This document shows positions 1,468 through 44,483 of a stretch of DNA of 64,000 nucleotides, piece by piece. Below the pieces are notes generated by a model. That model worked only from the letters and a program-made list of their open reading frames with translations, ran no database searches and was not told the origin of the DNA. Within the stretch, counting starts at the first letter, position 1; every line of letters starts with the position of its first letter. Source of the DNA: a virus; the IMG/VR virus record IMGVR_UViG_3300045539_000120, positions 1-64,000 of that record, one strand, 5' to 3'. The position numbers and the translations under genes are program-made.

Positions 1468-1641
1468 TTAATTATCTAAAATATCTAACATTTCATCGAT
1501 GTGATTTACACAATCTTCAATACTCCTACCACAACCATATGCCTCATCACAATCCTCTGTGTTAGAGAAAATAAACTTAGATTCAGGATGTGCAGGATTA
1601 TAACAATCATTCGCCTCAATTTTGTAATTTTTGTAAGTCAT
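1468..1641 (-). CDS. small hypothetical protein (57 aa, below ORF-track cutoff)
   Basis: ATG at 1641 lies 8 nt downstream of the conserved intergenic element copy at 1645-1722; ORF runs to TAA at 1468. Confidence 0.3.
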   Translation of the reverse strand: MTYKNYKIEANDCYNPAHPESKFIFSNTEDCDEAYGCGRSIEDCVNHIDEMLDILDN

Positions 1642-1644
1642 AGT

Positions 1645-1722
1645 GTATCTGTTTTAATTATAATGTAAATATAACTATAATATTTGATATAAAAAAATCC
1701 TAGTCAAAAAGTTATTAACAAT
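1645..1722 (-). promoter_or_regulatory. conserved intergenic element copy (candidate phage promoter/leader)
   Basis: ctgttttaattataatgtaaatataactataatatttga...aaagttattaacaat; immediately 5' of a minus-strand ATG. Confidence 0.5.
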
Positions 1723-2025
1723 TTAACTAGGATTCCATTCTTTTTTATAAATTAGTTCCCAATGCGCTCGATATTCTCGAACATTCATCATTTTAATTGT
1801 GTAATTTGAGTACATACCATCTTCATAAATACTGACAAATATTGCCATTGATGATGGTGTAACATGGTGTAATTTTGCCCATTTAAAAAGTGCTTTAATA
1901 TTACCCTTCTGTCTCATCTTTTTGGCAAAAGTCTTAAAGTCACAATCCCATCTAGTAGGATAGTAGCTCAGAATACCCGGGATACCAAATCCTATATAAC
2001 CAATATTAAATACAATTTGACTCAT
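1723..2025 (-). CDS. hypothetical protein
   Basis: 100-aa ORF; its stop lies beside the element copy. Confidence 0.4.
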   Translation of the reverse strand: MSQIVFNIGYIGFGIPGILSYYPTRWDCDFKTFAKKMRQKGNIKALFKWAKLHHVTPSSMAIFVSIYEDGMYSNYTIKMMNVREYRAHWELIYKKEWNPS

Positions 2026-3149
2026 TAGTGAGAATCTCCAATGTTATTTTTCTCACCAAATATTAAGTACTCTGGGTTTATAACCTTTGCAACCTTATTT
2101 CTTGCACCAGTAATATGTTTAATTACAATTCCTTCATGTGGTACCTTAGTGCCTTCAATAAAGTTATTGAATGTAAATTTATCTTGTACCTCTTGATTCC
2201 ATAATCCATTATATAATATTTCAACATGTGGAAGTTCTAGAACATCTTCTATGATGTATTCGGTCATCTCAGGGTCAACATAAGTTCCATTGATTGTTAA
2301 ATCAAATGCCGCAAATTCAATTGTATCTAAACCATATTCATAGTTCTTTTGAATTCCTGCACCATAAATTTCACCATACAGAACAAAACCAGAACCAATT
2401 TCCTCAACACTTCTACCTTTCACAGCAGTCCAAAGTTTTTCTTTGATACCAAGAGTTTCGTTAATAGTTCTCCAAACATCAGTTGAATAGAACCCTTGTG
2501 TGTCAGATCCTTTTTCACAGTTATGAGATCCGTAAATATATTCATAATCAATCCACTCATTGGCAATTCCTAAGAATTTTCTTGCCCGATCCCAGAATGA
2601 CAATTTAGATTTCTTTACAATACCATAACGTGCATTTGTACCATGTAATTTTCTGGAGATTTGAACTCCATCTTCTTCAGTAAATAAACCTGCAACATTT
2701 TTCAAGTTTGGAAACTTGTAGTACACATGAAAGTTTTGATTATCTCTCCATTTGATTTTTCTACCAGAAGCCAATTGAATTTGTTTTACGGGTGGTTCGA
2801 ATTTAGTGATACCTAACTCTTCCATTAAGTCTCTACCTTCTCTGATACTTGAAGCTTTGATATGTATTACTGGAATGATTAAACATTCAGAATAAACACC
2901 ACGCAACTTTACAGTACGTACCCTGCTTCCTTTTCTCAAGTATGAAGTAACACCCATCTTTTCAGAAAGTGCCTCTGGGATAACTGCATCTGTTGTTGCA
3001 ATTACAGTTAAGGACCCTTCTTTAAATTCACCTTTCTTTGTGATGGCATTCCATCCTCCAGCAACGACCAATTCAATGTTATCTGCTCCTTCGATTGCTC
3101 TTACTTCGTTTATTTTTGCTACATAGCAAACTGAATTTTGATTTTCCAT
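2025..3149 (-). CDS. ATP-dependent RNA ligase (Rnl-type nucleotidyltransferase)
   Basis: covalent nucleotidyltransferase motif I KLHGTN (K-x-H/D-G) and an N-terminal domain typical of phage/bacterial RNA ligases; sits beside a tRNA array and a PNK-like kinase. Confidence 0.6.
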   Translation of the reverse strand: MENQNSVCYVAKINEVRAIEGADNIELVVAGGWNAITKKGEFKEGSLTVIATTDAVIPEALSEKMGVTSYLRKGSRVRTVKLRGVYSECLIIPVIHIKASSIREGRDLMEELGITKFEPPVKQIQLASGRKIKWRDNQNFHVYYKFPNLKNVAGLFTEEDGVQISRKLHGTNARYGIVKKSKLSFWDRARKFLGIANEWIDYEYIYGSHNCEKGSDTQGFYSTDVWRTINETLGIKEKLWTAVKGRSVEEIGSGFVLYGEIYGAGIQKNYEYGLDTIEFAAFDLTINGTYVDPEMTEYIIEDVLELPHVEILYNGLWNQEVQDKFTFNNFIEGTKVPHEGIVIKHITGARNKVAKVINPEYLIFGEKNNIGDSH

Positions 3150-3166
3150 TTCTATATTTTTTTAAT

Positions 3167-3307
3167 TTATCTGTCTGCTAATCTTTTAAATACTGCTGCA
3201 ACTTCTGGCTCTTCTAATTTCTTTTTCAAAGATTGCCATTTTTCCTCCAAGAATTGGTTGTACTCTTGTTCAGTTTTAAATCCCATCTTTTTCCAATCCA
3301 TTTTCAT
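3167..3307 (-). CDS. small hypothetical protein (46 aa)
   Basis: ATG directly downstream of the element copy at 3310-3400; below ORF-track cutoff. Confidence 0.3.
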   Translation of the reverse strand: MKMDWKKMGFKTEQEYNQFLEEKWQSLKKKLEEPEVAAVFKRLADR

Positions 3308-3309
3308 AA

Positions 3310-3400
3310 TATTGTTTGTTTTAATTATAATGTAAATATAACTATAATATTTGAACTATGAAAACTTTTTTGAATTTATTTCCAAAAAGTTATTAACAAT
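3310..3400 (-). promoter_or_regulatory. conserved intergenic element copy (candidate phage promoter/leader)
   Basis: attgtttgttttaattataatgtaaatataactataatatttgaactatgaaaactttttt...aaaagttattaacaat. Confidence 0.5.
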
Positions 3401-3403
3401 TTG

Positions 3404-3890
3404 TAGTCAGGACAGGAATCGAACCTGCAACGCAAAACTTAATTCGTCTTAGCCTACTTTCACCTGACTTCCGTTCTAATGGAGGCATCGCACCTCAAAG
3501 ACTGTTCATAAACTAGTTTAATTAGCGTAGTCAGGACAGGATTCGAACCTATATGAGTTTCTTTCACCTCCACTCCATATAGAGTTGCGTCTCTCCAATT
3601 CCGCCACCTGACCTTTTGCAATTATGGTTGATTAGACCTCATGAAGTTTATTGCCCTCCAAGCCCAGTTTCCGTAACGGCGCAACTGAATTTCAAAACCC
3701 GCTCTTGCCTCACGCCCAAGAGTATGTCGGTACGTTTTACAGATACGCACATCATCTGAGTAATCAACTCATTGTAGTTAGGGTAGGATTCGAACCTACG
3801 ACATTTGCAACCAAAGGGATGTGATAGACCGCTTTCACATTACGCAATACCTAACTTCCATAAACCTAGCCTGACCTTCCAGACAGTACA
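3404..3890 (-). tRNA. array of at least 4 tRNA-like genes; several are non-canonical (e.g. a ~66-nt element at 3404-3470 with a perfect 7-bp acceptor stem and T-arm but a shortened D/anticodon region)
   Basis: repeated minus-strand T-loop signatures (RC of ggaatcgaacc / ggattcgaacc) with complementary acceptor strands (AGTCAGG/CCTGACT; GGTCAGG/CCTGACT; AGTTAGG/CCTAACT); anticodon arms could not be folded canonically by hand. Confidence 0.4.
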
Positions 3891-3934
3891 TGTCAAAATT
3901 AATTTGGCGCCTTGTTATGTAGTAGGTTCTTATT

Positions 3935-4534
3935 TTATATCATTACATCAATAAATTGTTTCTTCCAATCTAACCAAGGTTCCTTTGTCACCTTGAAATG
4001 GGTTAAATATTTCCAATGCATAAATAGTTTACGTTCATTCCAATCTTCATATTTCTTAATCAGATCACTTTGTTTATCTAGTTCAGTTTTATAAGTATCT
4101 GCCTTTTCAGAAAGTTTAGTAAAAACATCATCTATTTTTGCCAATCGGTTTACTGCCTTTTCAGTTGGTAAACCTTGTACCGATAACGAAACTATCAATT
4201 CTTTAAGATTAACTATTTTACTAATCATAGAATTTAATGTTGGAACACATGCATTATATGAAGTCTTTGCAGATTCTAAATGTCTTTTAAAACCATCAAA
4301 GTTCTCTTGTAATTCTCTGTCCTCTAAATCCTCTTTAAATAAAGATTCGGGATCGATTCCAAAGTATTTGTCAAAATCGTCTCCACCTGGAAGTGGCGCT
4401 TTAACTGCCAAACCTGCAATGTCCATATCTTTAACTTCATTAAGAACCGCAACATAACAATTACCTCGTTGAGTTTCTAAAAGTTCTTTAACCTGTTTTT
4501 CGTTATATAGTTTCATATTATAATTTAATTTCAA
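3935..4534 (-). CDS. hypothetical protein
   Basis: 199-aa ORF. Confidence 0.45.
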   Translation of the reverse strand: MKLNYNMKLYNEKQVKELLETQRGNCYVAVLNEVKDMDIAGLAVKAPLPGGDDFDKYFGIDPESLFKEDLEDRELQENFDGFKRHLESAKTSYNACVPTLNSMISKIVNLKELIVSLSVQGLPTEKAVNRLAKIDDVFTKLSEKADTYKTELDKQSDLIKKYEDWNERKLFMHWKYLTHFKVTKEPWLDWKKQFIDVMI

Positions 4535-4913
4535 AACGTTCTTTCATCTTTACTAATGTTTCTTTTGGAACATTGTGTGAATTTATTCCTCCATGCCTGT
4601 TTTCTACAACTATAGAATGTACTCTATATCCATATTTTTTGGCTAAATCATAGTAGGCCTGCATTTCCCATTCTTGCGTAAATGTGTTTGATACTACTAC
4701 ACTATGCTCATATTTCATAAGAAACTCTACCTCTTCTTGACACCAATCATGGGCTTCTTTAATCAGAGAAAAGTCAAATTTGTAATTTCCATCTCCGTCT
4801 ATAAAATACATATCGGCCTCTTTGTGACAATAATCTTTATCACCAACTAACATTTTTGCCAATGTAGATTTTCCAGCTCCTGGTAATCCTCTTAATAAAA
4901 ATAGTTCTTTCAT
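4518..4913 (-). CDS. P-loop kinase, polynucleotide-kinase-like (AAA_33-type)
   Basis: Walker A GLPGAGKSTLAK at the N-terminus; small size and adjacency to RNA ligase and tRNAs. Confidence 0.5.
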   Translation of the reverse strand: MKELFLLRGLPGAGKSTLAKMLVGDKDYCHKEADMYFIDGDGNYKFDFSLIKEAHDWCQEEVEFLMKYEHSVVVSNTFTQEWEMQAYYDLAKKYGYRVHSIVVENRHGGINSHNVPKETLVKMKERFEIKL

Positions 4914-4914
4914 T

Positions 4915-5160
4915 TTAGTATCTTTTATAATTTATAATGATGGACCATTTAGGCCAGTTTTGATTGGTTTGATTTTCAAGTGTTTTACTACTTACAAATT
5001 CATATCCATTTTCTTTGTTAATAACCGATTGCCAATCATAATTAGGGTCATCTACAGAGAATAAAACTCTAACGTTTTCTTTATTCATAATATTGTTGTT
5101 TCTGTGATTCGTAATATTCCTCTTCAGTGATCGGTCTTTTATCATATATTGCACTAGCAA
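4915..5160 (-). CDS. hypothetical protein
   Basis: 81-aa ORF. Confidence 0.35.
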   Translation of the reverse strand: MLVQYMIKDRSLKRNITNHRNNNIMNKENVRVLFSVDDPNYDWQSVINKENGYEFVSSKTLENQTNQNWPKWSIIINYKRY

Positions 5161-5229
5161 CTAAAAATCCCATAGTGAACGCAGTTATTGCAACTACTAT
5201 AATAATCCACTTAGTATCATCGCTTTCCA

Positions 5230-5616
5230 TTAGTTGATTTGAGCAAATACAGATTCATTAACAAATTGACTATCTTCATTTAAGATGTCTAATTCGTTTT
5301 CAGTCATTTCACGATCTCCGTAATCTGCAGATTCAATGTATGCATCACAAAAATCTCCATAATCTTCCATGTCAATTCCTCCAACCATTACGTTACTAAT
5401 CTTAGAATAATCTAATTTTATATCTTCAGTTACCATTCTATTTAATTCATTTAGGTCAGAAAGAGAACATTGAAATCTTGTTCCTTGGTTTGAATAAACC
5501 GTTTCTACCACAGCGGAAGTTGAATTTTCTTGCAATATATTAACGACAGTGTTTGCGCTAATAATTATACCATCGATCTTAAGATTTTGTCCTTTGTAAA
5601 CTTTGTAATTTTTCAT
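5230..5616 (-). CDS. hypothetical protein
   Basis: 128-aa ORF preceded by an element copy. Confidence 0.4.
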   Translation of the reverse strand: MKNYKVYKGQNLKIDGIIISANTVVNILQENSTSAVVETVYSNQGTRFQCSLSDLNELNRMVTEDIKLDYSKISNVMVGGIDMEDYGDFCDAYIESADYGDREMTENELDILNEDSQFVNESVFAQIN

Positions 5617-5618
5617 AT

Positions 5619-5708
5619 TTGTAGTGTTTTAATTATAATGTAAATATAACTATAATATTTGAACCATGAAAACTTTTTTACACTTATTTTTCAAAAGTTA
5701 TTAACAAT
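5619..5708 (-). promoter_or_regulatory. conserved intergenic element copy
   Basis: gtgttttaattataatgtaaatataactataatatttgaaccatgaaaactttttt...caaaagttattaacaat; the TAA inside ATTGTTAATAAC serves as stop codon of the upstream gene 5701-6309. Confidence 0.5.
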
Positions 5709-6309
5709 CTTCTAAACTATCTGGATAATATAAAAGAGTTGGATTTTTTCTTTGGATATCAATTTCAGGATATTTCTCACTAAACGCTTTAACATCAAAT
5801 CGAGATGTGATTAAATGATTTCCATTTTTAGTTCTGATGTTAGCAATGATTTTAGCGCCAAACGGTCTACATTTAGTATTAATAAATAATTGAACTTCTC
5901 TATCGAATTGTTCATCTTTAGTATCAATATCTACAATCCATCTTTTCTCTTGTGTTTTGATTTGACCAACTACAGAATCAAATAAACCCTTTTGATTTGT
6001 GTTACCATCCTGGATTCTTTGTGCGAGTGCAACCATCATATTAAGTGACACATCAAAGTGATTTTGTTTTTGAACATGAATATATGCGCGAGCCTTAAAC
6101 ATCTCACACAGGTCCTGTATTTCACTCCACCTGCGTTCTAGATGTTCAATACTCTCAATACAATAAGTCTTAATAGTTCTTACTGATTGGTGATTATCTC
6201 TCTCCTCGACTGGCTGATCTTTCTTGCGTTTAAACACATAAAGCATATAAAAGTCTCCTTTGTTTTCAAAGTTTAGGAGAGGTTTGATTATTTCTAGGTT
6301 GTTTATCAT
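5701..6309 (-). CDS. hypothetical protein
   Basis: 202-aa ORF. Confidence 0.45.
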   Translation of the reverse strand: MINNLEIIKPLLNFENKGDFYMLYVFKRKKDQPVEERDNHQSVRTIKTYCIESIEHLERRWSEIQDLCEMFKARAYIHVQKQNHFDVSLNMMVALAQRIQDGNTNQKGLFDSVVGQIKTQEKRWIVDIDTKDEQFDREVQLFINTKCRPFGAKIIANIRTKNGNHLITSRFDVKAFSEKYPEIDIQRKNPTLLYYPDSLEDC

Positions 6310-6310
6310 T

Positions 6311-6619
6311 TTAATAAGCTATTTTATCCTTTGGAACTTCAATTCCATTTAGTGCATTCAATAAAACTTGAATTCCTTCTTCAGTGTTTGGTCTAATAGT
6401 TCCGGCACATTTCATAGAGAATTGTTCATCACTAATATCAGTTCTACCCGTTGAAGTAGCAGATACAGATTTCATAAACCATGGGTTTCGACTAGGTCTC
6501 ATTGTTAAAATGGCGTACCATTTGTTATTACTACATTGTACAAGGGTACCTTCAACACTTGTGGTTGATTTTAAAGGTTTACTTTTAATTACTGTAATCT
6601 CTACTTTTTCAGTTGACAT
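6311..6619 (-). CDS. hypothetical protein
   Basis: 102-aa ORF. Confidence 0.4.
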   Translation of the reverse strand: MSTEKVEITVIKSKPLKSTTSVEGTLVQCSNNKWYAILTMRPSRNPWFMKSVSATSTGRTDISDEQFSMKCAGTIRPNTEEGIQVLLNALNGIEVPKDKIAY

Positions 6620-6701
6620 ATATTGTTTGTTTTAATTATAATGTAAATATAACTATTATATTTGACATAGTAAACATTTATTTAATAAAGTTATTAACAA
6701 T
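6620..6701 (-). promoter_or_regulatory. conserved intergenic element copy
   Basis: tattgtttgttttaattataatgtaaatataactattatatttgacatagtaaacatttatttaataaagttattaacaat. Confidence 0.5.
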
Positions 6702-7247
6702 TTCATCGTAGACGTTTGATTGTTTAATACCTTCACTGCTTCTTGGTGTTAGGACGAAGTTTTCTAGTCCATAACCTCCATTTGCTTGAGGACTCATATT
6801 TAAGTCATCAACCGCAACCCATTCTTTTACGTTTGGATTTAATTCTAAATATTGAAGAATTTCAAGGATTCTTTTGCGTTCTAACCATCCTTTCCACATA
6901 AACAGATCATTTGCCATAGGATCGAATTCATGTAGGTTTGGTGTAATTGCAATAGGTCTTTTTGAGATACCTTGCGCCTCGTAATAATCTCCAAGTTCCT
7001 CTAAGGTTGCATGCAATTTCCAATCAGAACTTACAACTATTTCAGCACCTGTAACTTCAAGTACTTTATTTAATATCTTAATTGCTTTTTTATCAAAATC
7101 ATCAAAACGTATTTCAACAGGTGCATCCTTTAAATTTGGACTGGATTCCGGATTTTGGGATCTATATTTAGACCATTTCTTATTTCTACCTCCCCAATTA
7201 TTTAAGAGACAAATCACACCATCGTTATCTAAGAATATTACCTTCAT
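6678..7247 (-). CDS. HAD-superfamily phosphatase-like protein (start moved to internal Met MKVIFLDNDGV)
   Basis: DxDG-type motif FLDNDGV at the proposed N-terminus; the longer ORF-track start at 7364 would overlap the upstream gene by 113 nt. Confidence 0.4.
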   Translation of the reverse strand: MKVIFLDNDGVICLLNNWGGRNKKWSKYRSQNPESSPNLKDAPVEIRFDDFDKKAIKILNKVLEVTGAEIVVSSDWKLHATLEELGDYYEAQGISKRPIAITPNLHEFDPMANDLFMWKGWLERKRILEILQYLELNPNVKEWVAVDDLNMSPQANGGYGLENFVLTPRSSEGIKQSNVYDEIVNNFIK

Positions 7248-7251
7248 CTTC

Positions 7252-7764
7252 TTATTTCTTTTTAAATTTGTAAAAATCTTCCAACAATTTACGTTCAACT
7301 CCTTTACGGTATTTGCAACCAATAAATGTTGATGTAAAATATCCCATACCTTGTGGAATTTCATGTGCTATTTCTAAAATTGCTCCGGATCTATCAGATG
7401 CTCGGTTCTCAGAATTTGTAGCCAAGATGCATACATCTCTCTCATAAATAAATGCCCACCATTCATTTGCACAACTCCATTCCCTTTCAAACATTTCAGA
7501 TAACCATGCATTTCTTTGATGCACGTGGGCTCTCTCTACTGTTAATGCATCTTTTCTATTTGGAATTCTCGCAAAATCCACGGATGCAAATGAATCTAAT
7601 GCTGCCTGTGTAATACCTATAACCCTCCAACTATCTGTGTAAAATGCACCTTGTGATTGTGAAAATCCTCTAATCAAATAGGTTCTATTTACCCCTGGTG
7701 TATTATATGCCACTTGTGTTGCTTTAAAAATATTAAAGTAGCTTTCAATATGTTCTTGTATCAT
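7252..7764 (-). CDS. hypothetical protein
   Basis: 170-aa ORF directly downstream of an element copy. Confidence 0.45.
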   Translation of the reverse strand: MIQEHIESYFNIFKATQVAYNTPGVNRTYLIRGFSQSQGAFYTDSWRVIGITQAALDSFASVDFARIPNRKDALTVERAHVHQRNAWLSEMFEREWSCANEWWAFIYERDVCILATNSENRASDRSGAILEIAHEIPQGMGYFTSTFIGCKYRKGVERKLLEDFYKFKKK

Positions 7765-7850
7765 TGTGTTGTTTTAATTATAATGTAAATATAACTAAAG
7801 TTTATGACCCGTGAAAACTTTTTTACACTTATTTTCAAAAAAGATAAAAA
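7765..7850 (-). promoter_or_regulatory. conserved intergenic element copy (variant lacking the GTTATTAACAAT module)
   Basis: gttgttttaattataatgtaaatataactaaagtttatgacccgtgaaaactttttt. Confidence 0.45.
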
Positions 7851-7891
7851 AGTCTCTCTATCTCATGATAAATATCAATAAACCAAATCCC

Positions 7892-8029
7892 ATGGCAAAA
7901 GCTGCAACACAATCTAATGTACTTGAAAAACCAAAAAAGGTAAGAAAAGGGGTACATGCAAAAACAAAATCTTCAAAAAACAAGGGTTCTCAAAACTACA
8001 AAAAGATTTACAAAGGTCAAGGTAAATAA
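7892..8029 (+). CDS. small lysine-rich basic protein (45 aa), the only plausible plus-strand gene here
   Basis: MAKAATQSNVLEKPKKVRKGVHAKTKSSKNKGSQNYKKIYKGQGK; followed by a GC-rich non-coding region and a terminator readable on the plus strand; start codon choice uncertain. Confidence 0.25.
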   Translation: MAKAATQSNVLEKPKKVRKGVHAKTKSSKNKGSQNYKKIYKGQGK

Positions 8030-13043: not shown

Positions 13044-13044
13044 A

Positions 13045-13716
13045 TTAAAAATTTGTTTTGGTTGTATTTTTGCCTTTATTTATTGATTTGTGAAATTCTA
13101 TTATTTTGTTCATTGCCTCTTCTGCTGAATCTACTATTCTAAATAAATCAAAATCTTTGTCACTCATTTTACCATCCGCTAAGACCGTATTTCTAAGCCA
13201 ATCAACAAGACCTGTCCAATATTCTTTTCCTACCAAAACTATTGGGTATTTTACATTATGTCCACATTGTGCTAATGTAATTGCTTCAAACATCTCATCC
13301 AAAGTTCCTACACCTCCTGGGAAAATTACAAATCCTTGAGAGTATTTAAGAAACATTACCTTTCTCGTAAAGAAATATCTATTTTCAACTCCTTTATCAA
13401 CGTATGGATTCATACCTGCTTCGAATGGTAATTCAATTCCAATTCCAATAGATTTTCCACCAACTTCTTTAGCTCCTTGATTTGCAGCTTGCATGATTCC
13501 AGGACCTCCTCCTGTAATTACACCGAATCCTTCTCTACTTATAAGTGCTCCAAACTTTCTTGCTTCATTATACCATCTGGTATTTACTTCCGTTCTTGCA
13601 CTTCCAAAAATTGAAATACATGGAATATTTAAATCATTAAATGTATCGAATCCTTTTGTAAATTCTGCCTGAATCCTTAGGATTTGCCAGGTATCTTCTG
13701 CCTTATTATTTCTCAT
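13045..13716 (-). CDS. LOG-family protein (nucleotide 5'-monophosphate nucleosidase / cytokinin riboside 5'-monophosphate phosphoribohydrolase-like)
   Basis: GGGPGIM and PGGVGTLDE motifs. Confidence 0.7.
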   Translation of the reverse strand: MRNNKAEDTWQILRIQAEFTKGFDTFNDLNIPCISIFGSARTEVNTRWYNEARKFGALISREGFGVITGGGPGIMQAANQGAKEVGGKSIGIGIELPFEAGMNPYVDKGVENRYFFTRKVMFLKYSQGFVIFPGGVGTLDEMFEAITLAQCGHNVKYPIVLVGKEYWTGLVDWLRNTVLADGKMSDKDFDLFRIVDSAEEAMNKIIEFHKSINKGKNTTKTNF

Positions 13717-14470
13717 TATATTGTTTTAAACGTTTCATGAATTCTTTAAAATAGTATTTCATATCATTATATGTCATTGTGAATATCTGTGGCTTTTCAT
13801 CTATTTCATTAGCCATCCATACTTCGCATCCTGTGGGTACAATTCCAGTTCTTTCATAAAATGCAACCGAATAACCTGCAACTTGACAAAAATAATCTTC
13901 TATCCACTCATCTCTCTTTGGTTTTCTACTATTTTTATAATCAATAATTAGTACTTTGTTTCCGACCATTTCCGAAGCATTATCGAGAGTACCTGCATAA
14001 CCTCGCTTAGACCATATAAATTTCTCTGCTGCCAATACTTTAACTACTCTATCAAAAAAATCTTCATGGTGATTCCAAAACTTCATAAAGAATTCCCATC
14101 CAGCCTTTAACCAAACATCTCCACTGGGATCCTCGTTAAATTGATTGACCTCTTCGTCAGTTGATGTAATAACATGTAGTTGTGATAAACGCTCTGTGGG
14201 TGTACCCTTTATGCCTTTATATAATTCAATAAGACGATGCATTATAGTTCCTCGGTTCATTGACAGATTTGAGATTCTATCTGCCTCTTCATGGCCTATT
14301 TTATTTCGCCATTCATCAAGACCACCTTTGTCCTTTGTTTCACCAAGAATTGTTGTCATGCTTGGAAAGATTCCAATTACAATATCATCTACTGTTACTT
14401 TATAATGCCTTAATCCGTTTACATCAACTCGCTCAATATGTTCGCTCATGCAAATGCTGAAATTAACCAT
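13706..14470 (-). CDS. PD-(D/E)XK nuclease-like protein (YqaJ/lambda-exonuclease-like)
   Basis: IIDYKNSRKPK ... YFCQVAGYSV resembles the D..(D/E)xK...QxxxY core; weak. Confidence 0.35.
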   Translation of the reverse strand: MVNFSICMSEHIERVDVNGLRHYKVTVDDIVIGIFPSMTTILGETKDKGGLDEWRNKIGHEEADRISNLSMNRGTIMHRLIELYKGIKGTPTERLSQLHVITSTDEEVNQFNEDPSGDVWLKAGWEFFMKFWNHHEDFFDRVVKVLAAEKFIWSKRGYAGTLDNASEMVGNKVLIIDYKNSRKPKRDEWIEDYFCQVAGYSVAFYERTGIVPTGCEVWMANEIDEKPQIFTMTYNDMKYYFKEFMKRLKQYNEK

Positions 14471-14871
14471 CTTGCAAGAAATACTAATGTGGTAACAATT
14501 CCGGCAAATGCTGTATTTCGTAAAAATGACATTGAATTAAAGTAATCATTTTCTGGATAGAGAACTACTAGAAATTGATCTGTATTTTGGATTTTACTTA
14601 TTTCAGGATATGATAAATCTGAAAGACCATATTTTACTAAAATTTCATTAATAGGTCCTAACTCTTGAAATACCATTGATTGTTGTATCATTTCGGGTTG
14701 AGTTCTAAACTCTTCTTTAATTGATACTACACCATAAATTCTGCCAATCCAATCTATTCTTAGATTTGCAGTGTTTAATTCAGGTTCAATACTTTTTACA
14801 GCTTTGTAATATTTTCTTGTAATCCATGCCTCTTTAATAAAACGGGGCCAAAATAATAGTATGTCTTTCAT
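14446..14871 (-). CDS. hypothetical protein with C-terminal hydrophobic segment
   Basis: 141-aa ORF. Confidence 0.4.
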   Translation of the reverse strand: MKDILLFWPRFIKEAWITRKYYKAVKSIEPELNTANLRIDWIGRIYGVVSIKEEFRTQPEMIQQSMVFQELGPINEILVKYGLSDLSYPEISKIQNTDQFLVVLYPENDYFNSMSFLRNTAFAGIVTTLVFLARWLISAFA

Positions 14872-15109
14872 ATTAATATGTGTATTTAGTAGTTATATTA
14901 AAAAATGAGAATTTGTTTCATAAAAAAATGGGACCGAAGTCCCATTAGATTAAATAGATAAAAGGTCACCGCTATCACCTTTAGTGGTAGTTTTAGGAAT
15001 TACTTCCAAGGTTTTGAATTCTTTAATGTCTTGTTCTAAAAGACTCAACGACTGTTGCATCGTTACCGCACGAAACTACTTATACCTTAACGCGAAGCGG
15101 TTTTAAGAA

Positions 15110-15186
15110 TGGCGGTTCCAGTGGGATTCGAACCCACGACCTCCGCCGTGACAGGGCGGCGTTGTAACCAACTCTACTATGGAACC
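15110..15186 (-). tRNA. tRNA-Asp(GTC), CCA encoded
   Basis: hand-folded cloverleaf: acceptor GGTTCCA/TGGAACC, anticodon loop CTGTCAC, T-loop GGTTCGAATCC, 3' GCCA. Confidence 0.8.
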
Positions 15187-15195
15187 AATTTAAAG

Positions 15196-15269
15196 TAGTC
15201 AATAATGGACTCGAACCATTGACCTCCTCGGTATCAGCGAGGCGCTCTAACCAACTGAGCTAAATGACT
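15196..15269 (-). tRNA. tRNA-Ile(GAT)
   Basis: acceptor AGTCATT/ATTGACT (one mismatch), D-arm GCTCAGTTGGTTAGAGC, anticodon loop CTGATAC. Confidence 0.75.
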
Positions 15270-15699
15270 ATATATTCTTACCTCGATATGTTGAAGTTTG
15301 ACTATGGCAATTTGGACATAATATCCTTAGATTATCTAATTTATGATTAGTTCTATTGCCATCAATATGGTCTAATTCTAAAGATATATGATTATCCATC
15401 CACATACCTATATTACATATCTCACATTTATGTTCTTTAATACCTTCTCTTATCAACCTAATTCTTAATTTATTAGTTTGATAACTAGGGTGGTTTCCAA
15501 TTAAAATATCACTTAATTCTATTTTTGAACCATTGTGTCTTTTATTAGTACCCTTTCCTGATTGATTAGGATTATATACGTTTAAATCGATCGCTTTCTT
15601 TTTAAATGTATTAAAATGCATCTTTAATATAGCGGCTGCTTCGCTCATAGATTTTGCATTCTTGCACACATCTATTATTTGTTCATTTGTATTTTCCAT
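15268..15699 (-). CDS. HNH homing endonuclease
   Basis: CEICN...HIDGNRTNHKLDNLRILCPNCH HNH motif; inserted between tRNA genes. Confidence 0.75.
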   Translation of the reverse strand: MENTNEQIIDVCKNAKSMSEAAAILKMHFNTFKKKAIDLNVYNPNQSGKGTNKRHNGSKIELSDILIGNHPSYQTNKLRIRLIREGIKEHKCEICNIGMWMDNHISLELDHIDGNRTNHKLDNLRILCPNCHSQTSTYRGKNI

Positions 15700-17900: not shown

Positions 17901-18140
17901 TTATTTTGCGTAATTTCTATCTAATAAATCATGCCATGTTAATACTCCAACTAAATGTGGAAGTGAATATGAATCAGTGTTCATTTCCCAATCTCCATCA
18001 AAATTAGTAAATTGAATCATATAACAATCTTCTAAAATTGTTATTAAACATTTATCATTTGCCCATTTATTAGGGCAAACATTTTTGAATGAGTTTCTAC
18101 CTAAGAAACTTTCCACATAAGGATTAACAATCTCTTCCAT
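17901..18140 (-). CDS. hypothetical protein
   Basis: 79-aa ORF. Confidence 0.35.
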   Translation of the reverse strand: MEEIVNPYVESFLGRNSFKNVCPNKWANDKCLITILEDCYMIQFTNFDGDWEMNTDSYSLPHLVGVLTWHDLLDRNYAK

Positions 18141-19419
18141 TTTCGTATATTGCTTTAACTGTTGGAAATCTTAAACTTGTTCCACCATTTTGGTTGTGAG
18201 TTTCTTCGAAATATTGGACACATATTTGTTTTCCAAGAATTTCACTAGGATTTTCGAAATAATATCTTTTTTGTTCGTGTGTAAATCCACTACCTACTTG
18301 TACTCTACTTCCTTTATGTTCTATCACAACATTTTTCATCATTAACTCTTCAACTTCTTTTCCATCTACGATAACTCTGTTTAATGCATTTTCAATATCG
18401 ACAACCACATATTCTGCATCAAAGAATTGTTTAACCTTTAAGATATCATTGCTACGTTTTCCTTGGTAAGTTGCATCTCTACGTAACATTAATCCTTCCC
18501 AACCATTTTCTTTAGCTAATTGACTATAGTATGTTATCATTCTCTCATCAATTAGGATTTGTTGGTCTAAACATCCAATATTTTTAAATTCTTTTTCAAA
18601 GAATAAATTATCTAATTGCACATTTCTAATTGAAAATGGAGTTGTTCCTTCCTTTGTAACAAATTCATCCATCGATAATATATCAAACATATAAAAGAAT
18701 GGATTCTCAATCGTATGGTCTTTACGTTTAATTTCTTTAATGATACCTTGGAAATTCTCATTTCCATTTGCATCCATCATACAAATTTCTCCATCAATTA
18801 CCATATTCTTTAGACCTAATGAAATTATTTCAGCATCTAAATTTTTAAGTGTTAGAAATTCATTTCCTCCACGTGAAAAATACGTAGGTTCACCTTCCGC
18901 ATCGATAATACAAATACATCTACAACCATCTAATTTTCTACTAACATACCAAACATCTTTGTCCATGTCAACTTTCTTAGCGGTTTTTTCATCGTATGAA
19001 TTTGCCAAAGCAACATCAAATGTTGGAATCAAGTTTGGAATAACTTTATTAACCATTGAAGCAGTAGAACGTGTTTTTAAATTTCTATCAATAATAGAGA
19101 AAATTAAATCCTCGTGCTTTTTGTTTGCTTCTACAAATCCATTTACTAAACTAATTGCCAAGTGACCTGTGATAAATCGTATTGATAAATCATCTAACAA
19201 TTTAAAAAGATCGCTATAACCATATTTGATTAAGTTTGAATTCTTTTTGCAATTAGCAGAAGTTACTCCATATTGTTTAAACGTATTGTAAGTATATTCT
19301 AAAGCATTACGAACTGCTTCATTTTCTGAGTATTGTTTTAACACATTTAATTTATCAGTGTTTGAGTTTGTAGAATTTTGTGCATCTACGAATTCTTGTA
19401 TTTGTTCTAAATTTGTCAT
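18124..19419 (-). CDS. ATP-dependent DNA ligase
   Basis: adenylation motif I RKLDGCR (KxDGxR), motif IV-like EGLMLR, motif V-like LKVK. Confidence 0.6.
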   Translation of the reverse strand: MTNLEQIQEFVDAQNSTNSNTDKLNVLKQYSENEAVRNALEYTYNTFKQYGVTSANCKKNSNLIKYGYSDLFKLLDDLSIRFITGHLAISLVNGFVEANKKHEDLIFSIIDRNLKTRSTASMVNKVIPNLIPTFDVALANSYDEKTAKKVDMDKDVWYVSRKLDGCRCICIIDAEGEPTYFSRGGNEFLTLKNLDAEIISLGLKNMVIDGEICMMDANGNENFQGIIKEIKRKDHTIENPFFYMFDILSMDEFVTKEGTTPFSIRNVQLDNLFFEKEFKNIGCLDQQILIDERMITYYSQLAKENGWEGLMLRRDATYQGKRSNDILKVKQFFDAEYVVVDIENALNRVIVDGKEVEELMMKNVVIEHKGSRVQVGSGFTHEQKRYYFENPSEILGKQICVQYFEETHNQNGGTSLRFPTVKAIYENGRDC

Positions 19420-20887: not shown

Positions 20888-21574
20888 TTATTTGAATTTA
20901 TTTATATATATTCTAATTAGCATTACAACATCCATTGCATCTTCAAGTGCATTATGTGTTACAACACCATCAATTCCAGCACGTTGCTTACATTGGTCTA
21001 AACTTGGAATTGATTCGTCATTAATCCAATCCACAAATAAGATGCCTGGATCTAGAACTCTACTACGAATTGAAAATACTTGTTTCCATCTCGGCAACTT
21101 CTCTAAGAATTTCTTGTCAAATCCTGCAAAGTTCTTACCTGCGCAGTTCAGGTAGGTTTTTACCATATTTGAACCTAAAATTGGATATGGAATACCATCA
21201 ACTATTTTCATTTGTTTATTTAAAAAGTTAGGGTCTAAATCAACCAAACCATTTCTGAAACAAAATTGATACAGTGCCTCTACAACCTCATCTTCATGAT
21301 AAAACTTGGCTCCAAATGATTCCTCAACTTCTTGCTTTAATTCATCGGTTTTTGATTCAGAATAATCCTTCATTGCTTGGATTAAATCTTTGTTTAAATT
21401 GAGTGCAAAGATACTGCCATACACACTTTCGCGCTTAATAACAGCATGAAACTTTGGTAATTCTTCGAATGGAAGAGGATTTAAAGTGTCTTCAATTACT
21501 GCTCCTATTGAAAGGATTTGATTAAGATCTGCGTCTAATCCGGTGGTCTCGATATCTATTGAAATATACTTCAT
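20888..21574 (-). CDS. DEDDh-family 3'-5' exonuclease (DnaQ-like)
   Basis: Exo I SIDIETTGLD and Exo III HNALEDAMD motifs. Confidence 0.7.
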   Translation of the reverse strand: MKYISIDIETTGLDADLNQILSIGAVIEDTLNPLPFEELPKFHAVIKRESVYGSIFALNLNKDLIQAMKDYSESKTDELKQEVEESFGAKFYHEDEVVEALYQFCFRNGLVDLDPNFLNKQMKIVDGIPYPILGSNMVKTYLNCAGKNFAGFDKKFLEKLPRWKQVFSIRSRVLDPGILFVDWINDESIPSLDQCKQRAGIDGVVTHNALEDAMDVVMLIRIYINKFK

Positions 21575-23401: not shown

Positions 23402-24046
23402 TTATTCGTGGTGGTCCTTAAATGCAAACATGGATTTAACAGGTTGTTTTTGCATGATTGAAAGAACCTCACGTAATTCAATTGGTTTTAAATCATTACC
23501 ATCAACTCCGACATCCATCATTCTCCCTGGACCTAGTCTTCTACCTTTTGGTAAATGAACATGGCCATGTAAATGCATAACCCCTTGTCCCATATCTTGC
23601 CAACTTGCCATTGGATAGTGGCTTAATATAAATCTGTTCTTTTGTGCAGGAAGGTTCTTAGAAATTGCCTGTATTACCACAGTAACATATAGGTAATGAT
23701 TAACACTTAAGAAATTATCTCTAACATCTTCCTTGTTATTTTCAATATGATGGTCATGATTTCCTAGGATTAGGTGAATATTTTTACAAACTATTCGGTT
23801 TCTAAACTCAGATATTTTCTCAATTCCACCAAAACTCCAGTCACCTAGGTGAATCAATATGTCATTCTCTCCTACTGTATTGTTTATATTATCTACCAGA
23901 ACTTGATTCATCTGGTGTAACGTATTGAACTCACGTGTTCCTCTTGAACCATCCCATTGGGAGATACCTCCACATATATTGGTGTGGTTATAATGTGTAT
24001 CACTTGTAAAAAATACCCTTTGTCCTTTTTCTACTACTATTTTCAT
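23402..24046 (-). CDS. calcineurin-like metallophosphoesterase
   Basis: SDTHYNH, HLGDWSFGG and LGNHDHH motifs. Confidence 0.75.
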   Translation of the reverse strand: MKIVVEKGQRVFFTSDTHYNHTNICGGISQWDGSRGTREFNTLHQMNQVLVDNINNTVGENDILIHLGDWSFGGIEKISEFRNRIVCKNIHLILGNHDHHIENNKEDVRDNFLSVNHYLYVTVVIQAISKNLPAQKNRFILSHYPMASWQDMGQGVMHLHGHVHLPKGRRLGPGRMMDVGVDGNDLKPIELREVLSIMQKQPVKSMFAFKDHHE

Positions 24047-24416: not shown

Positions 24417-25262
24417 TTATTTGATACCAATCATGGAATTTGTTTTGTCACCTAGCATTGTTTCAGGTAATTTACCATTCCATTTGTTAATCCATTCTAA
24501 TTGAAGTAGCATTGGTGTGATGGTTTTTTGTTTTAAACTATTTGCCTCAGCCTCAGCTCTTGCAGATGCCAACATTGCAGCGGCATTACCGTTTGCAGTC
24601 GCAACTTTAATTTTAGCTTGTGCCTCTGCTGTTTTAACTTCATTTTCTGCTCTTAATGCTGACTGTACTGCATTGTTCTTAGCTTCAATTGATCGTTTAA
24701 ATGTCTCTGGATAAATTAAGTTTGATGTAAATTGATTAATAACGAATCCCTCTTTAAGTAATTGTCCTTCAAGTAATCTTCGTACTTCTACTTCAAACAC
24801 TGCACGATTTGAAATTAATTCGTCTGCTGTATATTTATTAGTAGCTAAACGGAATGCATCATAAACTGCTGTTTTTAAGAATCCTTCCTCGATTTCTGGA
24901 AGAGATCTACGATATTTAGCAAAAATTGCTGGTACTTTTTCTGACCTAACAGAGTAATTCATAATTGGAGAAACGCTAAATTCAGAACCATCCTTTGAGT
25001 TTACAATAAATGAATTATCTACTTCTTCGGTTTTCTTATATTCTTTATGTTGAATATAAGTTGGAAACTCATAAATTTTTGTTGAAATTGGATTAAAAAA
25101 TACAACTCCAGTACATGCCGTAACATCATCTACCCCTTTACCACTTCCATAAAGGTTAACCTTTACGCCAACATGTCCTGCATCAATACGCTCACATGAA
25201 AATACTAAAAATACTGATAAAAATACTACCGAAATAATTGCAATAATTGATTTAATTGTCAT
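24417..25262 (-). CDS. SPFH/band-7 (stomatin/prohibitin-like) membrane protein
   Basis: N-terminal TM segment then an Ala/Glu-rich coiled region (AEAQAKIKVATANGNAAAMLASARAEAEA) typical of SPFH C-termini. Confidence 0.5.
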   Translation of the reverse strand: MTIKSIIAIISVVFLSVFLVFSCERIDAGHVGVKVNLYGSGKGVDDVTACTGVVFFNPISTKIYEFPTYIQHKEYKKTEEVDNSFIVNSKDGSEFSVSPIMNYSVRSEKVPAIFAKYRRSLPEIEEGFLKTAVYDAFRLATNKYTADELISNRAVFEVEVRRLLEGQLLKEGFVINQFTSNLIYPETFKRSIEAKNNAVQSALRAENEVKTAEAQAKIKVATANGNAAAMLASARAEAEANSLKQKTITPMLLQLEWINKWNGKLPETMLGDKTNSMIGIK

Positions 25263-26209: not shown

Positions 26210-26917
26210 TTATATAAATGTGATTTCGTTTGTTTCAGGATTCCAATCAAATGTTACTGGTTTGTTATTATATTCATATCTCTCGTTTAATATAGATGCA
26301 TTAAAGAAATGTGTTCCATTATGAAACTTATAACCATATCCACCATGAATGTGTCCAAATACATGAATCTTAGGTGGTTGTTCATCTACCTTTTCTCTAA
26401 GTAATGCACATCCTAAATGAGGTTCATTGTATGGAGGACCACTAACATCTAAATGGTCTTGTGGTGGTCCATGTGTAATAAGAATATCAGTATCTTTAGG
26501 AATTGCTTCCCATTTTGACATTAATCCTGGACCACCCTTTGGTAAGTTAAATGCCCAACTATAAAATTCAGGTTGCCAAGGACTACCGTAAATAACTGTT
26601 TGCTGATCGTCTTGATCCCATAGATCTAATCTGTTATCTTGAAGATATTCAATGTTCTTAAAAGAAGTATAAATCTCACTTGCCATTTCTGGGTCATTTT
26701 CAAAGATTCTGTCATGATTCCCAGCAATAAACACCTTCGTATCGTATTGGTTTAAACTGTCGAACCATTTACAGAATTGATGAATATCCACTGGATTTCT
26801 ACCAGAATTCATGATATCTCCGGCATGAATTAATAGGTCTCCTCCTGGTAAATCTTTTGGATCGTAAGATAACTCATCATGTTTTGTGTGAGTGTCAGAA
26901 ATTAGTGTAATTCTCAT
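26210..26917 (-). CDS. calcineurin-like metallophosphoesterase
   Basis: SDTHTKH, HAGDIMNSG, AGNHD and GHIHGG motifs. Confidence 0.75.
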   Translation of the reverse strand: MRITLISDTHTKHDELSYDPKDLPGGDLLIHAGDIMNSGRNPVDIHQFCKWFDSLNQYDTKVFIAGNHDRIFENDPEMASEIYTSFKNIEYLQDNRLDLWDQDDQQTVIYGSPWQPEFYSWAFNLPKGGPGLMSKWEAIPKDTDILITHGPPQDHLDVSGPPYNEPHLGCALLREKVDEQPPKIHVFGHIHGGYGYKFHNGTHFFNASILNERYEYNNKPVTFDWNPETNEITFI

Positions 26918-27749: not shown

Positions 27750-27994
27750 TTTCCTTTATGTGAACCCCATTGAAAGTTACCCATTCCAACTACAATATAT
27801 TCACAACCTTCAAGAGTGTATGTCCTATAAGTTCTATCAGAATATTGTGAAGTACTATCTAATTCGTAACGACTAGCACTAGTATTTTGATGTGGGTCTT
27901 TATAATTTTCTGGTTTGCAGCTAGTAACCATAAAGATTACTAGTGCAGCCAAGATTATTATTATTAATGGTATGGGTGAGTTTTGTCTATTCAT
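27719..27994 (-). CDS. small secreted or lipoprotein-like protein
   Basis: hydrophobic N-terminus ending VTSCKP. Confidence 0.35.
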   Translation of the reverse strand: MNRQNSPIPLIIIILAALVIFMVTSCKPENYKDPHQNTSASRYELDSTSQYSDRTYRTYTLEGCEYIVVGMGNFQWGSHKGNCTNIIHKQK

Positions 27995-29576: not shown

Positions 29577-29780
29577 TTAATTTTTTCTAATTCCTGTTAC
29601 CATTACATATTTAAACGTTCCATTTGATAAAAACGTATGTTGAATAAATGTTACCTCGTATGTTGCGGCTTTTTCCATTGTTATTAATTCATCTATTAAT
29701 GGTTTTTCAACTTCGCAAATAAAATCATGTTCGCAAACACCTTTATTCATTAGGATAAATCTACACTTCGTCATTGTCAA
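29577..29780 (-). CDS. hypothetical protein
   Basis: 67-aa ORF. Confidence 0.3.
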   Translation of the reverse strand: MTMTKCRFILMNKGVCEHDFICEVEKPLIDELITMEKAATYEVTFIQHTFLSNGTFKYVMVTGIRKN

Positions 29781-32568: not shown

Positions 32569-32784
32569 TTATATTAATTTTAAGTGTTTTAATTCCTCTA
32601 TTGCATCGTCAAATGCTTCTTGCCAAGTTCGGTGTAAATACCAATTTTTAATTTCGATTCTTTCGTAGTTTCCAAAATGTGTATACTTAAATATATCATA
32701 TGCATACTTAGGGGCACTCGTCTGGTCTAAACTTATTTCTATAATGTAACCACGTTCCGTATATAATGAATCAATGGTGTACAT
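32569..32784 (-). CDS. hypothetical protein
   Basis: 71-aa ORF. Confidence 0.4.
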   Translation of the reverse strand: MYTIDSLYTERGYIIEISLDQTSAPKYAYDIFKYTHFGNYERIEIKNWYLHRTWQEAFDDAIEELKHLKLI

Positions 32785-42954: not shown

Positions 42955-43062
42955 GTAATTATGATTGGATTCGAACCAATTTCAGCTTTACAATAAAGAG
43001 TATATTTCAACTCAACCTTTGTGAGGTGCCGCCAACCAATGGCCTCATAATCATTTGTGGAT
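42955..43062 (-). tRNA. tRNA-like element with long extra arm and no readable standard anticodon
   Basis: acceptor GATTATG/CATAATT (G-U at bp 1) and T-arm ATTGGTTCGAATCCAAT. Confidence 0.25.
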
Positions 43063-43803: not shown

Positions 43804-43812
43804 ATTGTATTG

Positions 43813-43901
43813 TGCAAGAAGCTGGGATCGAACCAGCGGCACGTCCATGTTCCTTCCAACCGAAGTACTGGGGATTGCTCTACCAACTGAGCTATTCTTG
43901 C
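43813..43901 (-). tRNA. tRNA-like gene with canonical acceptor, D- and T-arms but expanded, unfoldable anticodon region (possible Tyr-GTA type or pseudogene)
   Basis: acceptor GCAAGAA/TTCTTGC, D-arm GCTCAGTTGGTAGAGC, T-arm GCTGGTTCGATCCCAGC; 39 nt between D- and T-arms contains CAGTACT. Confidence 0.35.
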
Positions 43902-44342: not shown

Positions 44343-44401
44343 AATTCTAATTCTACGCTCACAATATGTAGTTCTATGAATTAGTAACAGTCTCGTCTGT
44401 G

Positions 44402-44472: not shown

Positions 44473-44483
44473 AAATTTAATTT

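Follow-up and report, generated by a model that had tools for sequence, protein, structure and literature searches.

Does a cluster of small genes in an uncultured jumbo myovirus encode the parts of an RNA repair kit and, if so, what kind of break would those parts mend? The cluster lies at 2025-4913 of a 64,000-nt stretch of DNA, positions 1 to 64,000 of the IMG/VR record IMGVR_UViG_3300045539_000120 (hereafter the window), and contains a stand-alone P-loop kinase gene, an RNA ligase gene and, between them, a group of tRNA-like elements. The window is an accessory region of the phage with a strong tRNA-maintenance theme. It also encodes a tail sheath and a large terminase, and all of its open reading frames (ORFs) of at least 100 aa, once nested ones are removed, are on the minus strand; comparison of its DNA with isolated phages returned short patches only and no close relative. 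A preliminary description made from the DNA letters had proposed that the cluster, together with two phosphatase-like genes elsewhere in the window, heals and seals cleaved tRNA as T4 Pnkp and Rnl1 do. The reading that we prefer, with modest confidence, is that of a split healing-and-sealing RNA repair kit. Its basis is the domain identities of the encoded proteins, a conserved kinase-ligase pairing and the co-occurrence of these genes with tRNA-maintenance genes. The genes concerned are the following:

4518-4913, minus strand: stand-alone P-loop kinase of the polynucleotide 5'-OH kinase clade, 131 aa (AAA_33, PHROGs, PDB profile, fold)
2025-3149, minus strand: ATP-dependent RNA ligase of the Rnl5 family (DraRnl/NgrRnl-like), 374 aa (Pfam, PDB, NCBIfam, PHROGs)
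6678-7250, minus strand: stand-alone "Swiss-army-knife" (SAK) HAD, 190 aa from M39 (HAD_SAK_2)
52348-52800, minus strand: stand-alone HAD, phosphatase domain of T4-type Pnkp, 150 aa (HAD_PNKP, phrog_505, PDB)

Kinase, ligase and phosphatases

The ligase had been recognized as Rnl-type from its motif I (KLHGTN), which contains K167, and the domain matches agree. Residues 162-357 match the Pfam RNA_ligase domain (PF09414, 1.2e-15) and residues 10-94 match the PHA02142 OB-fold domain (PF21189, 3e-14). The protein is thus an N-terminal OB domain followed by a nucleotidyltransferase domain with no C-terminal appendage, and it ends 19 residues after K355; Rnl5 enzymes are described as having the same order of domains and no C-terminal module (PMC4408790). 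It aligns over its full length with NCBIfam TIGR02306 (RNA_lig_DRB0094, the DraRnl family; 5.5e-27, 94.5 bits) and matches phrog_968, "RNA ligase", in PHROGs (1.4e-57). The best match in the PDB is Naegleria gruberi NgrRnl (5COT, 1.5e-15 for the whole sequence), where residues 11-122 align to NgrRnl 11-128 and the strong alignment is in the N domain only. In an alignment of 66 homologues, which takes in the annotated RNA ligase of Pseudomonas phage K5, the invariant residues include K167 and G170 of motif I, E260 (motif III), D283 (IIIa), E339 and K344 (IV) and K355 (V). The window ligase has no match to the Rnl1 domain RNA_lig_T4_1 (PF09511) at E<=0.01 and none in Pfam to DNA_ligase_OB or the Rnl2 C-domain. 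An assignment to Rnl1 was ruled out for want of a PF09511 match, and one to the DNA ligases was ruled out on its profile as an RNA ligase; a separate ATP-dependent DNA ligase is encoded at 18124-19419. Judged by these profiles, the enzyme is a divergent Rnl5-type ligase, neither an Rnl1 nor a DNA ligase.

The Walker A motif reported for the kinase (GLPGAGKST) is present as residues G9-T17, within a match to Pfam AAA_33 (1.7e-13). All 18 homologues compared retain D34, which falls opposite D35 of T4 Pnk; we take the latter to be the general base of that enzyme. A profile built from the 18 homologues and searched against the PDB ranked 9D8A first, followed by T4 Pnk, a second Mucorales kinase, CthPnk, O-phosphoseryl-tRNA kinase (PSTK) and Pnkp1, with E-values of 6.7e-6 for 9D8A, 5.3e-5 for T4 Pnk 1LY1, 1.3e-3 for 4GP7 and 8e-3 for 4XRP. 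The first of these, 9D8A, is a stand-alone RNA 5'-OH kinase of Mucorales that acts in tRNA splicing (PMC11571804). With the AlphaFold (AF2) model of the kinase (pLDDT 80.6), Foldseek placed T4 Pnk at ranks 1-11, PSTK and CthPnk next, and gluconate kinase and PFK-2 lower in the list; the TM-scores are moderate, at 0.56-0.70 overall and 0.56-0.60 for the T4 Pnk ranks (normalised to the query). By profile and by predicted fold, the nearest solved relatives are 5'-OH polynucleotide or RNA kinases, with T4 Pnk first by fold. In PHROGs, the kinase belongs to its own family, phrog_2071 (1.6e-41), and also matches positions 1-113, the kinase half, of the T4-type Pnkp family phrog_505 (4.9e-10). It further matches the first 109 positions of phrog_8238 (737 positions, annotated "RNA ligase"; 4.9e-8), which suggests that kinase-ligase fusions may exist. 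The preliminary description would have given up its proposal for a ligase that profiled only as a DNA ligase and a kinase without polynucleotide kinase activity. The findings do not refute it: the ligase carries no DNA ligase profile, and the closest structures to the kinase are those of polynucleotide kinases.

The placement of kinase and ligase in one block is borne out by related phages, in which the pairing is conserved. The IMG/VR set comprised 80 loci with ligases 63-86% identical to that of the window, on contigs of up to 271 kb, and 66 loci remained after duplicate removal (labels such as L046 and L204 denote related IMG/VR loci or contigs that were compared with the window). Of the 66 non-redundant loci, 48 have a same-strand kinase gene ahead of the ligase; the gap between them ranges from 4 to 4297 nt and is 20 nt or less in 11 of the 48. 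These loci are related, and the count therefore partly reflects common descent. Independent support for the linkage comes from two isolated phages, Aeromonas phage phiA009 and Pseudomonas phage Pyxpy02, in which a kinase 48-55% identical to that of the window overlaps an Rnl1-type ligase (PF09511); HD and calcineurin-type phosphoesterases are found near the pair in Pyxpy02. A counter-example is provided by Pakpunavirus phages, where the kinase and ligase families are about 40 kb apart. Given the variation in the gap, the kinase-ligase interval is an insertion hot spot, and ORF199 and the tRNA-like cluster of the window are such an insertion, common to few relatives.

Both HAD phosphatase-like genes that had been pointed out, at 6678-7247 and 52348-52800, were confirmed by domain matches, and searches for RNA_ligase, AAA_33 and HAD_PNKP, which had been proposed as a check on the block, all returned their domains. 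ORF 52348-52800 matches Pfam HAD_PNKP (PF25109, 6.8e-31) over residues 3-150 of 150, and the motifs DLDGT, FSGR and DDRD can be read in its translation. Its best PDB match is Pnkp1 from the Pnkp1-Rnl-Hen1 complex (4XRP, 3.4e-12), and T4 Pnkp (1LTQ, residues 162-301) is matched at 1.1e-8. The same ORF matches phrog_505 at positions 162-295 (2e-35), such that a single T4-type Pnkp profile is covered by two genes 47 kb apart and a kinase-HAD fusion is absent, in keeping with the proposal that the healing activities are located on separate small proteins. The second phosphatase gene has a full open frame at 6678-7364 with a likely start at M39 (7250), which agrees with the 7247 given earlier; its motif I, DNDGV, follows M39, and it matches HAD_SAK_2 (PF18143, 1.8e-19) over profile positions 1-138 of 139. 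A PDB sequence search with the SAK HAD gave no meaningful match to solved structures. Its gene precedes that of the kinase by 1.8 kb, and homologues are encoded no more than 6 kb from the ligase in L038, L041, L042/43, L048, L051 and L071, abutting the kinase in L071. A guanylate-kinase-like P-loop kinase (4e-21), probably a nucleotide kinase, is encoded at 51833-52312 (minus strand), 36 nt downstream of the Pnkp-type HAD gene.

A repair pathway can be proposed from these parts. A host ribotoxin or other damage would break an RNA, leaving 5'-OH and 3'-phosphate or 2',3'-cyclic phosphate ends. The 131-aa kinase would then phosphorylate the 5'-OH, one of the two HADs (SAK type or T4 Pnkp type) would remove the 3'-phosphate, and the Rnl5 ligase would seal the 3'-OH/5'-phosphate junction via a K167-AMP intermediate. 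From the sequences we infer these activities, the order of the steps, the substrate and a role against host defences, with tRNA as the presumed substrate and PrrC-type nucleases as the presumed trigger. Since Rnl5 enzymes seal 3'-OH/5'-phosphate nicks in duplexes, and only if the 3'-OH strand is RNA (PMC4408790, PMC5397189), by analogy the break would most likely lie in a base-paired context, such as a tRNA or rRNA helix, and not in a free loop.

RNA elements and neighbouring genes

In the direction of transcription, the block runs from the kinase (4913-4518) through ORF199 (4534-3935), 590 nt of non-coding DNA and a 46-aa ORF (3307-3167) to the ligase (3149-2025). Between the two enzyme genes lie, in transcriptional order:

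3935-4534, minus strand: ORF199, overlapping the kinase stop by 17 nt (homologues in few relatives)
3775-3856, minus strand: tRNA-like element A, 82 nt; acceptor AGTTAGG/CCTAACT and T arm, interior not a cloverleaf (structure scan)
3614-3773, minus strand: conserved structured non-coding RNA of about 160 nt, between tRNA-like elements A and B (IMG/VR matches, RNAalifold)
3528-3613, minus strand: tRNA-like element B, 86 nt; tRNA-Leu-like acceptor, D and T arms, with a 4-bp stem and 6-nt loop for an anticodon arm (Rfam, ARAGORN)
3404-3469, minus strand: tRNA-like element C, 66 nt; acceptor AGTCAGG/CCTGACT and T arm, no D arm and no anticodon arm (structure scan)
3308-3402, minus strand: promoter-like intergenic element (blastn against the window)
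3167-3307, minus strand: ORF46, a small ORF of 46 aa directly upstream of the ligase (tblastn homologues)

This interval had been described as the first tRNA array of the window, a description that does not hold. ARAGORN and Rfam make one marginal call in 3350-3935, at 3527/8-3613 on the minus strand (34.1 bits vs. a gathering score of 29), corresponding to element B; Rfam aligns a 6-nt loop in the place of the anticodon loop, and the ARAGORN reading of "Pro-UGG" needs an A at position 33. The remainder consists of two uncalled tRNA-like elements and the structured RNA. In each of elements A, B and C the acceptor stem is paired and the T arm reads GGTTCGAnTCC, and all three lack the combination of 5-bp anticodon stem, 7-nt loop and U33 that defines a canonical tRNA. 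Element A is uncalled at normal thresholds, with a partial match to the tRNA model (E 3.5), and is 90% identical in L050. Element C is called neither by ARAGORN nor at the Rfam gathering score and has a weak match to the tRNA-Sec model (E 0.17); a near-identical copy is found in L204. Genuine tRNA arrays are found elsewhere in the window, at 15.1-16.0 kb and 41.5-45.5 kb, and a single further tRNA at 54.7 kb; the window has 24 tRNA calls, and no tRNA-His is called among them. Within the main array there is another uncalled tRNA-like element (42956-43052, minus strand, 97 nt, acceptor GATTATG/CATAATT), which is conserved in L015/L016 and whose interior recurs with an AGTCAGG frame in L120, L192 and L203. 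Two called tRNAs of that array are unusual, namely a 90-nt "tRNA-Tyr" (43812-43901, 46.6 bits) and a weak tRNA-Pro (44401-44475, 36.2 bits), both on the minus strand.

The shared 3' end of elements B and C, GGTTCGAATCCTGTCCTGACTA, was found in at least 120 viral contigs in an IMG/VR scan, and 151 distinct elements were collected from these (L062-L067, L070, L084-L203 and the window). Their constant parts are AGTCAGGTGGCGGAAT(T)GGTAGACGC on the 5' side and ACAGGTTCGAATCCTGTCCTGACTA on the 3' side, enclosing a hypervariable interior of 19-131 nt that falls into 114 sequence clusters among 134 elements. Most elements (134/151) start with (A/G)GTCAGG, and positions 8-16 are 63-96% conserved although the search did not constrain them. 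There can be up to 6 copies per 5 kb, and a few elements (L105, L146, L182) have an extra D-loop hairpin. Recurrent interiors show compensatory changes; for example, the L092 homologue of element B keeps its stem through a two-sided change from ACUC/GAGU to GCCC/GGGU. ARAGORN calls no tRNA in 123 of the 151, many are seen by Rfam only as "tRNA" with long insertions, and Rfam searches of the window region and 12 element-rich loci returned "tRNA" only, with no Y RNA, tmRNA or intron. The structured RNA between elements A and B shares a 41-nt identical core with L046 and occurs in eight IMG/VR contigs (L205-L211 and L214; seven found by a 25-nt core and one by a 16-nt pattern), with tRNA-like elements on either side in every case. 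Two further matches to the 16-nt pattern were discarded as chance. RNAalifold folds five of its sequences into a closed multi-hairpin structure of 42 pairs, 6 of which have changes on both sides, and the RNA has no Rfam match at E<=10. As it always lies between two tRNA-like elements, it could be released by tRNA-processing enzymes. Nothing else in the interval is as unexpected as the tRNA-framed family and the 160-nt RNA; no description of either was found in the searchable literature, which is weak evidence of absence.

Adjacency to tRNA genes had been offered as evidence for tRNA repair. It does not serve as such, given that the neighbouring elements are aberrant and the kinase-ligase gap is so variable. 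Moreover, a scan of 120 element-side loci found no window protein to be enriched (maximum 9/120), with the ligase and the kinase present in only four loci each; the position of the elements beside the ligase thus reflects no conserved functional link. A bolder conjecture, and one that we think improbable, is that the three tRNA-shaped genes are not decayed tRNAs but members of a large, apparently undescribed phage "tRNA-scaffold" family, in which a tRNA-Leu-like acceptor/D/T frame carries an insert of 19 to 131 nt for an anticodon arm. Such RNAs would be maintained or remodelled by the co-transcribed healing and sealing enzymes, or would act as decoys for the same host nucleases.

The promoter-like element at 3308-3402 is one of about 18 copies of a 90-nt element in the window, all of them on the minus strand and just upstream of an ORF or tRNA (other sites include 1650, 5625, 6620, 7769, 19423, 24274, 29494, 43667, 50148 and 53392). 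One copy precedes tRNA-Glu, and related loci each have many copies. Part of the repeat has a 78% match to an intergenic region of Chryseobacterium phage MA9V-2, which hints at a possible Bacteroidota host. A scan of 1500-7900 for sigma-70 promoters and terminators gave counts not above those of shuffled sequences, and transcription units were therefore derived from the repeat, presumably a promoter. The repeats suggest the following unit boundaries, the division being presumptive:

From the repeat at 7769: ORF170 and the SAK HAD
From the repeat at 6620: ORF102 and ORF202
From the repeat at 5625: ORF128, two small ORFs, the kinase, ORF199 and the RNA cluster
From the repeat at 3308: ORF46, the ligase and ORF100

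ORF199 has no Pfam, PHROG or NCBIfam match, and its homologues are confined to L050, L054, L057, L204 and, weakly, L061. ORF46 has no family match in Pfam; tblastn finds homologues in L007/L008, where they are upstream of the ligase, and in L055 and L204. Three other genes of the window bear on repair or tRNA maintenance:

5701-6309, minus strand: ORF202, a protein with an archaeo-eukaryotic primase (AEP)/prim-pol fold and WIVDID and TKNGNH motifs (predicted fold)
29761-30564, minus strand: Thg1-like 3'-5' nucleotidyltransferase (5.8e-30)
38348-39088, minus strand: short CCA-adding/poly(A)-polymerase-type nucleotidyltransferase (5.3e-18)

ORF202 belongs to a family of at least 7893 proteins with no Pfam domain. 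Sequence searches with it gave no Pfam match and only chance-level matches in the PDB profile search, and it was therefore placed by its predicted fold, that of archaeo-eukaryotic primases and prim-pols, with an invariant DxD and downstream His; it is a possible nucleotide-adding partner of the repair enzymes. The Thg1-like and CCA-adding-type enzymes would mend tRNA 5' and 3' ends, respectively. Two calcineurin-like metallophosphoesterases (23402-24046 and 26210-26917) and an RNase T-like (DEDDh) exonuclease (20888-21574), all on the minus strand, could be further end-processing enzymes. Other conflict-related accessory genes on the same strand encode NAMPT (27994-29493), PRPP-synthetase-like (32784-33680), Band-7/SPFH (24417-25262) and LOG/SLOG-family (13045-13716) proteins, the first two of which suggest NAD salvage.

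What the enzymes might mend

Several points weigh against a split RNA repair kit. Repair of tRNA is, to our knowledge, yet to be demonstrated for any Rnl5 enzyme. The TIGR02306 score of the window ligase is below the equivalog cut-off of 151.15, which marks it as a divergent member of the DraRnl family and not an equivalog. The kinase and ligase genes of the window are separated by 1.4 kb and, since a promoter-like repeat precedes the ligase unit, the two may not form one operon here. The T4-type phosphatase is encoded 47 kb away, and no dedicated 2',3'-cyclic phosphodiesterase was identified in the window. The closest relative found, L204 (JGI 3300047393 Ga0466489_000001, 235.7 kb; flanking genes 78-95% identical), keeps the SAK HAD (in two copies), ORF202, the kinase (58% identical), ORF199 and tRNA-like element C at 13044-15300, but has no ligase at the matching site, where a 311-aa ORF is found instead; the ligase is on this account a replaceable accessory gene. 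Furthermore, the physiological substrates of Rnl5 ligases have been described as unknown (PMC4408790), and their sole known phenotype is in DNA repair after irradiation (PMC5397189).

That phenotype has a place in a serious rival, which we consider possible yet doubtful, namely that the module repairs DNA or RNA-primed DNA. Here, the AEP-type ORF202 would add ribonucleotides at breaks or gaps, the kinase and phosphatases would clean DNA ends bearing 5'-OH and 3'-phosphate groups, and the Rnl5 ligase would seal nicks with a short RNA patch on their 3'-OH side, in parallel with bacterial LigD (POL, PE, LIG) and with DraRnl in Deinococcus. It counts for this explanation that T4-type Pnk acts on DNA and RNA alike. 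ORF202, with its AEP fold and catalytic-type motifs, lies 790 nt upstream of the kinase and is again a neighbour of the ligase in about 10 loci, and the kinase-ligase pair of phiA009 stands beside a DNA ligase, a dUTPase and an exonuclease. DraRnl requires at least two ribonucleotides at the 3'-OH side of the nick and tolerates DNA in both the 5'-phosphate strand and the template. Its deletion or a K165M substitution renders D. radiodurans sensitive to ionising radiation and delays genome reassembly, and a 5'-OH polynucleotide kinase is encoded in a nearby radiation-induced operon (PMC5397189). However, ORF202 has its own promoter-like repeat and is loosely linked to the ligase, and the phage has its own DNA ligase. 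The same kinase family is also paired with Rnl1-type ligases, the family of T4 tRNA repair, both HADs are in families named for RNA repair, and the surroundings are rich in tRNA-maintenance genes.

The position of the RNA elements invites a different explanation, in which the kinase and ligase mature the tRNA-shaped RNAs of the phage by cutting and rejoining, as in eukaryotic Trl1-type tRNA splicing. The three elements and the structured RNA lie between the two genes, apparently in the kinase transcription unit; the closest solved relative in the kinase profile search is a tRNA-splicing RNA 5'-OH kinase (PMC11571804), and inserts of very different length in one and the same frame could suggest removable segments. 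Yet no endonuclease was identified, removal of the inserts would leave no canonical anticodon arm, ligase or kinase genes accompany the elements in just 4 of the 120 loci, kinase and ligase abut in 11 loci with nothing between them, and few relatives have ORF199 and the elements at this site. With the linkage this weak, such maturation is very unlikely indeed. It is also quite unlikely that the genes do not cooperate at all, the kinase being a nucleotide or small-molecule kinase or the genes being independent accessories brought together by descent in a mosaic, insertion-prone region. AAA_33 is a broad family, with gluconate kinase and PFK-2 among the fold matches; the region is mosaic, as seen in the variable gaps and the ligase missing at the L204 site; Pakpunavirus phages carry both families far apart; and adjacency in the 66 related loci is partly shared ancestry. 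On the other hand, polynucleotide kinases head both the profile and the fold searches, a long PHROG "RNA ligase" family begins with a stretch that the kinase matches, and, what makes non-cooperation unlikely, the pairing recurs in unrelated isolated phages, in overlapping frames and with a different ligase family.

Relation to known repair systems

The split RNA repair kit that we favour can be compared with several characterized systems. With T4 Pnkp and Rnl1, which repair tRNA-Lys after PrrC cleavage, it shares a predicted 5'-OH kinase, a HAD DxDxT 3'-phosphatase and an ATP-dependent ligase. The T4 logic put forward in the preliminary description stands insofar as the kinase, HADs and ligase are all of RNA-repair families, but not in its Rnl1 component, since the ligase is of the Rnl5 type, with an N-terminal OB domain and nick-sealing relatives. 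The kinase and phosphatase are separate here and there is a second, SAK-type HAD. Unlike T4 and PrrC, we know of no cognate anticodon nuclease for the window system. The ligase resembles DraRnl of Deinococcus radiodurans and NgrRnl of Naegleria gruberi in the order of its OB and nucleotidyltransferase domains, motif I KxxG and motifs III, IIIa, IV and V; it differs in being divergent and phage-encoded, and a PNK-type kinase gene usually comes before it, whereas the operon partner of DraRnl is a DEDDh-like exonuclease (PMC5397189).

Bacterial Pnkp/Hen1 and Pnkp1-Rnl-Hen1 systems (Clostridium thermocellum, Capnocytophaga gingivalis) are related through their parts, in that the kinase profile leads to CthPnk and Pnkp1 and the HAD to the Pnkp1 phosphatase domain. 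They are cellular operons, whereas the present parts are unfused and of a phage, and no Hen1 methyltransferase was found in the window. The phiA009 and Pyxpy02 pairs have the kinase family in common with the window, immediately adjoining an RNA ligase in overlapping frames, but in the order ligase then kinase, with a ligase of the Rnl1 type (PF09511) and no tRNA-like elements between. For the RNA elements, a comparison may be drawn with T4 RNA C and RNA D, reportedly stable small RNAs with tRNA-like ends that are encoded in the T4 tRNA gene cluster. Their functions are unknown (PMC9697503). They and the elements and 160-nt RNA at 3404-3856 are alike, by description only, as phage non-decoding RNAs among tRNA genes; the present elements form a very large family with a tRNA-Leu-like frame and hypervariable interiors.

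The closest parallel in overall content is the toolkit of jumbo phages. The 2021 survey of these phages by Iyer and colleagues is said to follow earlier work by Burroughs and Aravind (2016). It lists tRNA arrays, an ATP-dependent RNA ligase, a polynucleotide kinase, a stand-alone SAK HAD, a PNK-type HAD, a CCA-adding enzyme and Thg1, with a presumed role in countering host attacks on tRNA (Iyer et al., 2021; PMC7824862). All of the listed parts are present in the window. The survey names Rnl1 and Rnl2 as the main ligases, with "rare divergent versions", whereas the ligase here is of the Rnl5 type, and the PNK-type HAD, usually fused to a kinase in the survey, is free-standing.

Phage RNA repair is an established counter-defence idea and the kits of jumbo phages have already been catalogued (PMC7824862), such that the general claim is not new. 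What the window provides is new instances and no new principle: a PNK-type kinase, encoded on its own, that habitually precedes an Rnl5 ligase, a Pnkp-type HAD that is not fused to a kinase, and a kit whose parts are dispersed over 50 kb. In addition, the locus exposes a large tRNA-framed RNA family and a new structured RNA that are mostly missed by standard tRNA finders. The physiological role of Rnl5 ligases has been stated to be uncharted (PMC5397189), and the PNK-type kinase gene that immediately precedes the gene of an Rnl5 ligase in dozens of phages provides a tangible clue from genomes, suggesting that Rnl5 ligases act on breaks that start with 5'-OH ends. The pair thus offers a compact two-gene system in which RNA repair can be weighed against RNA-patched DNA repair.

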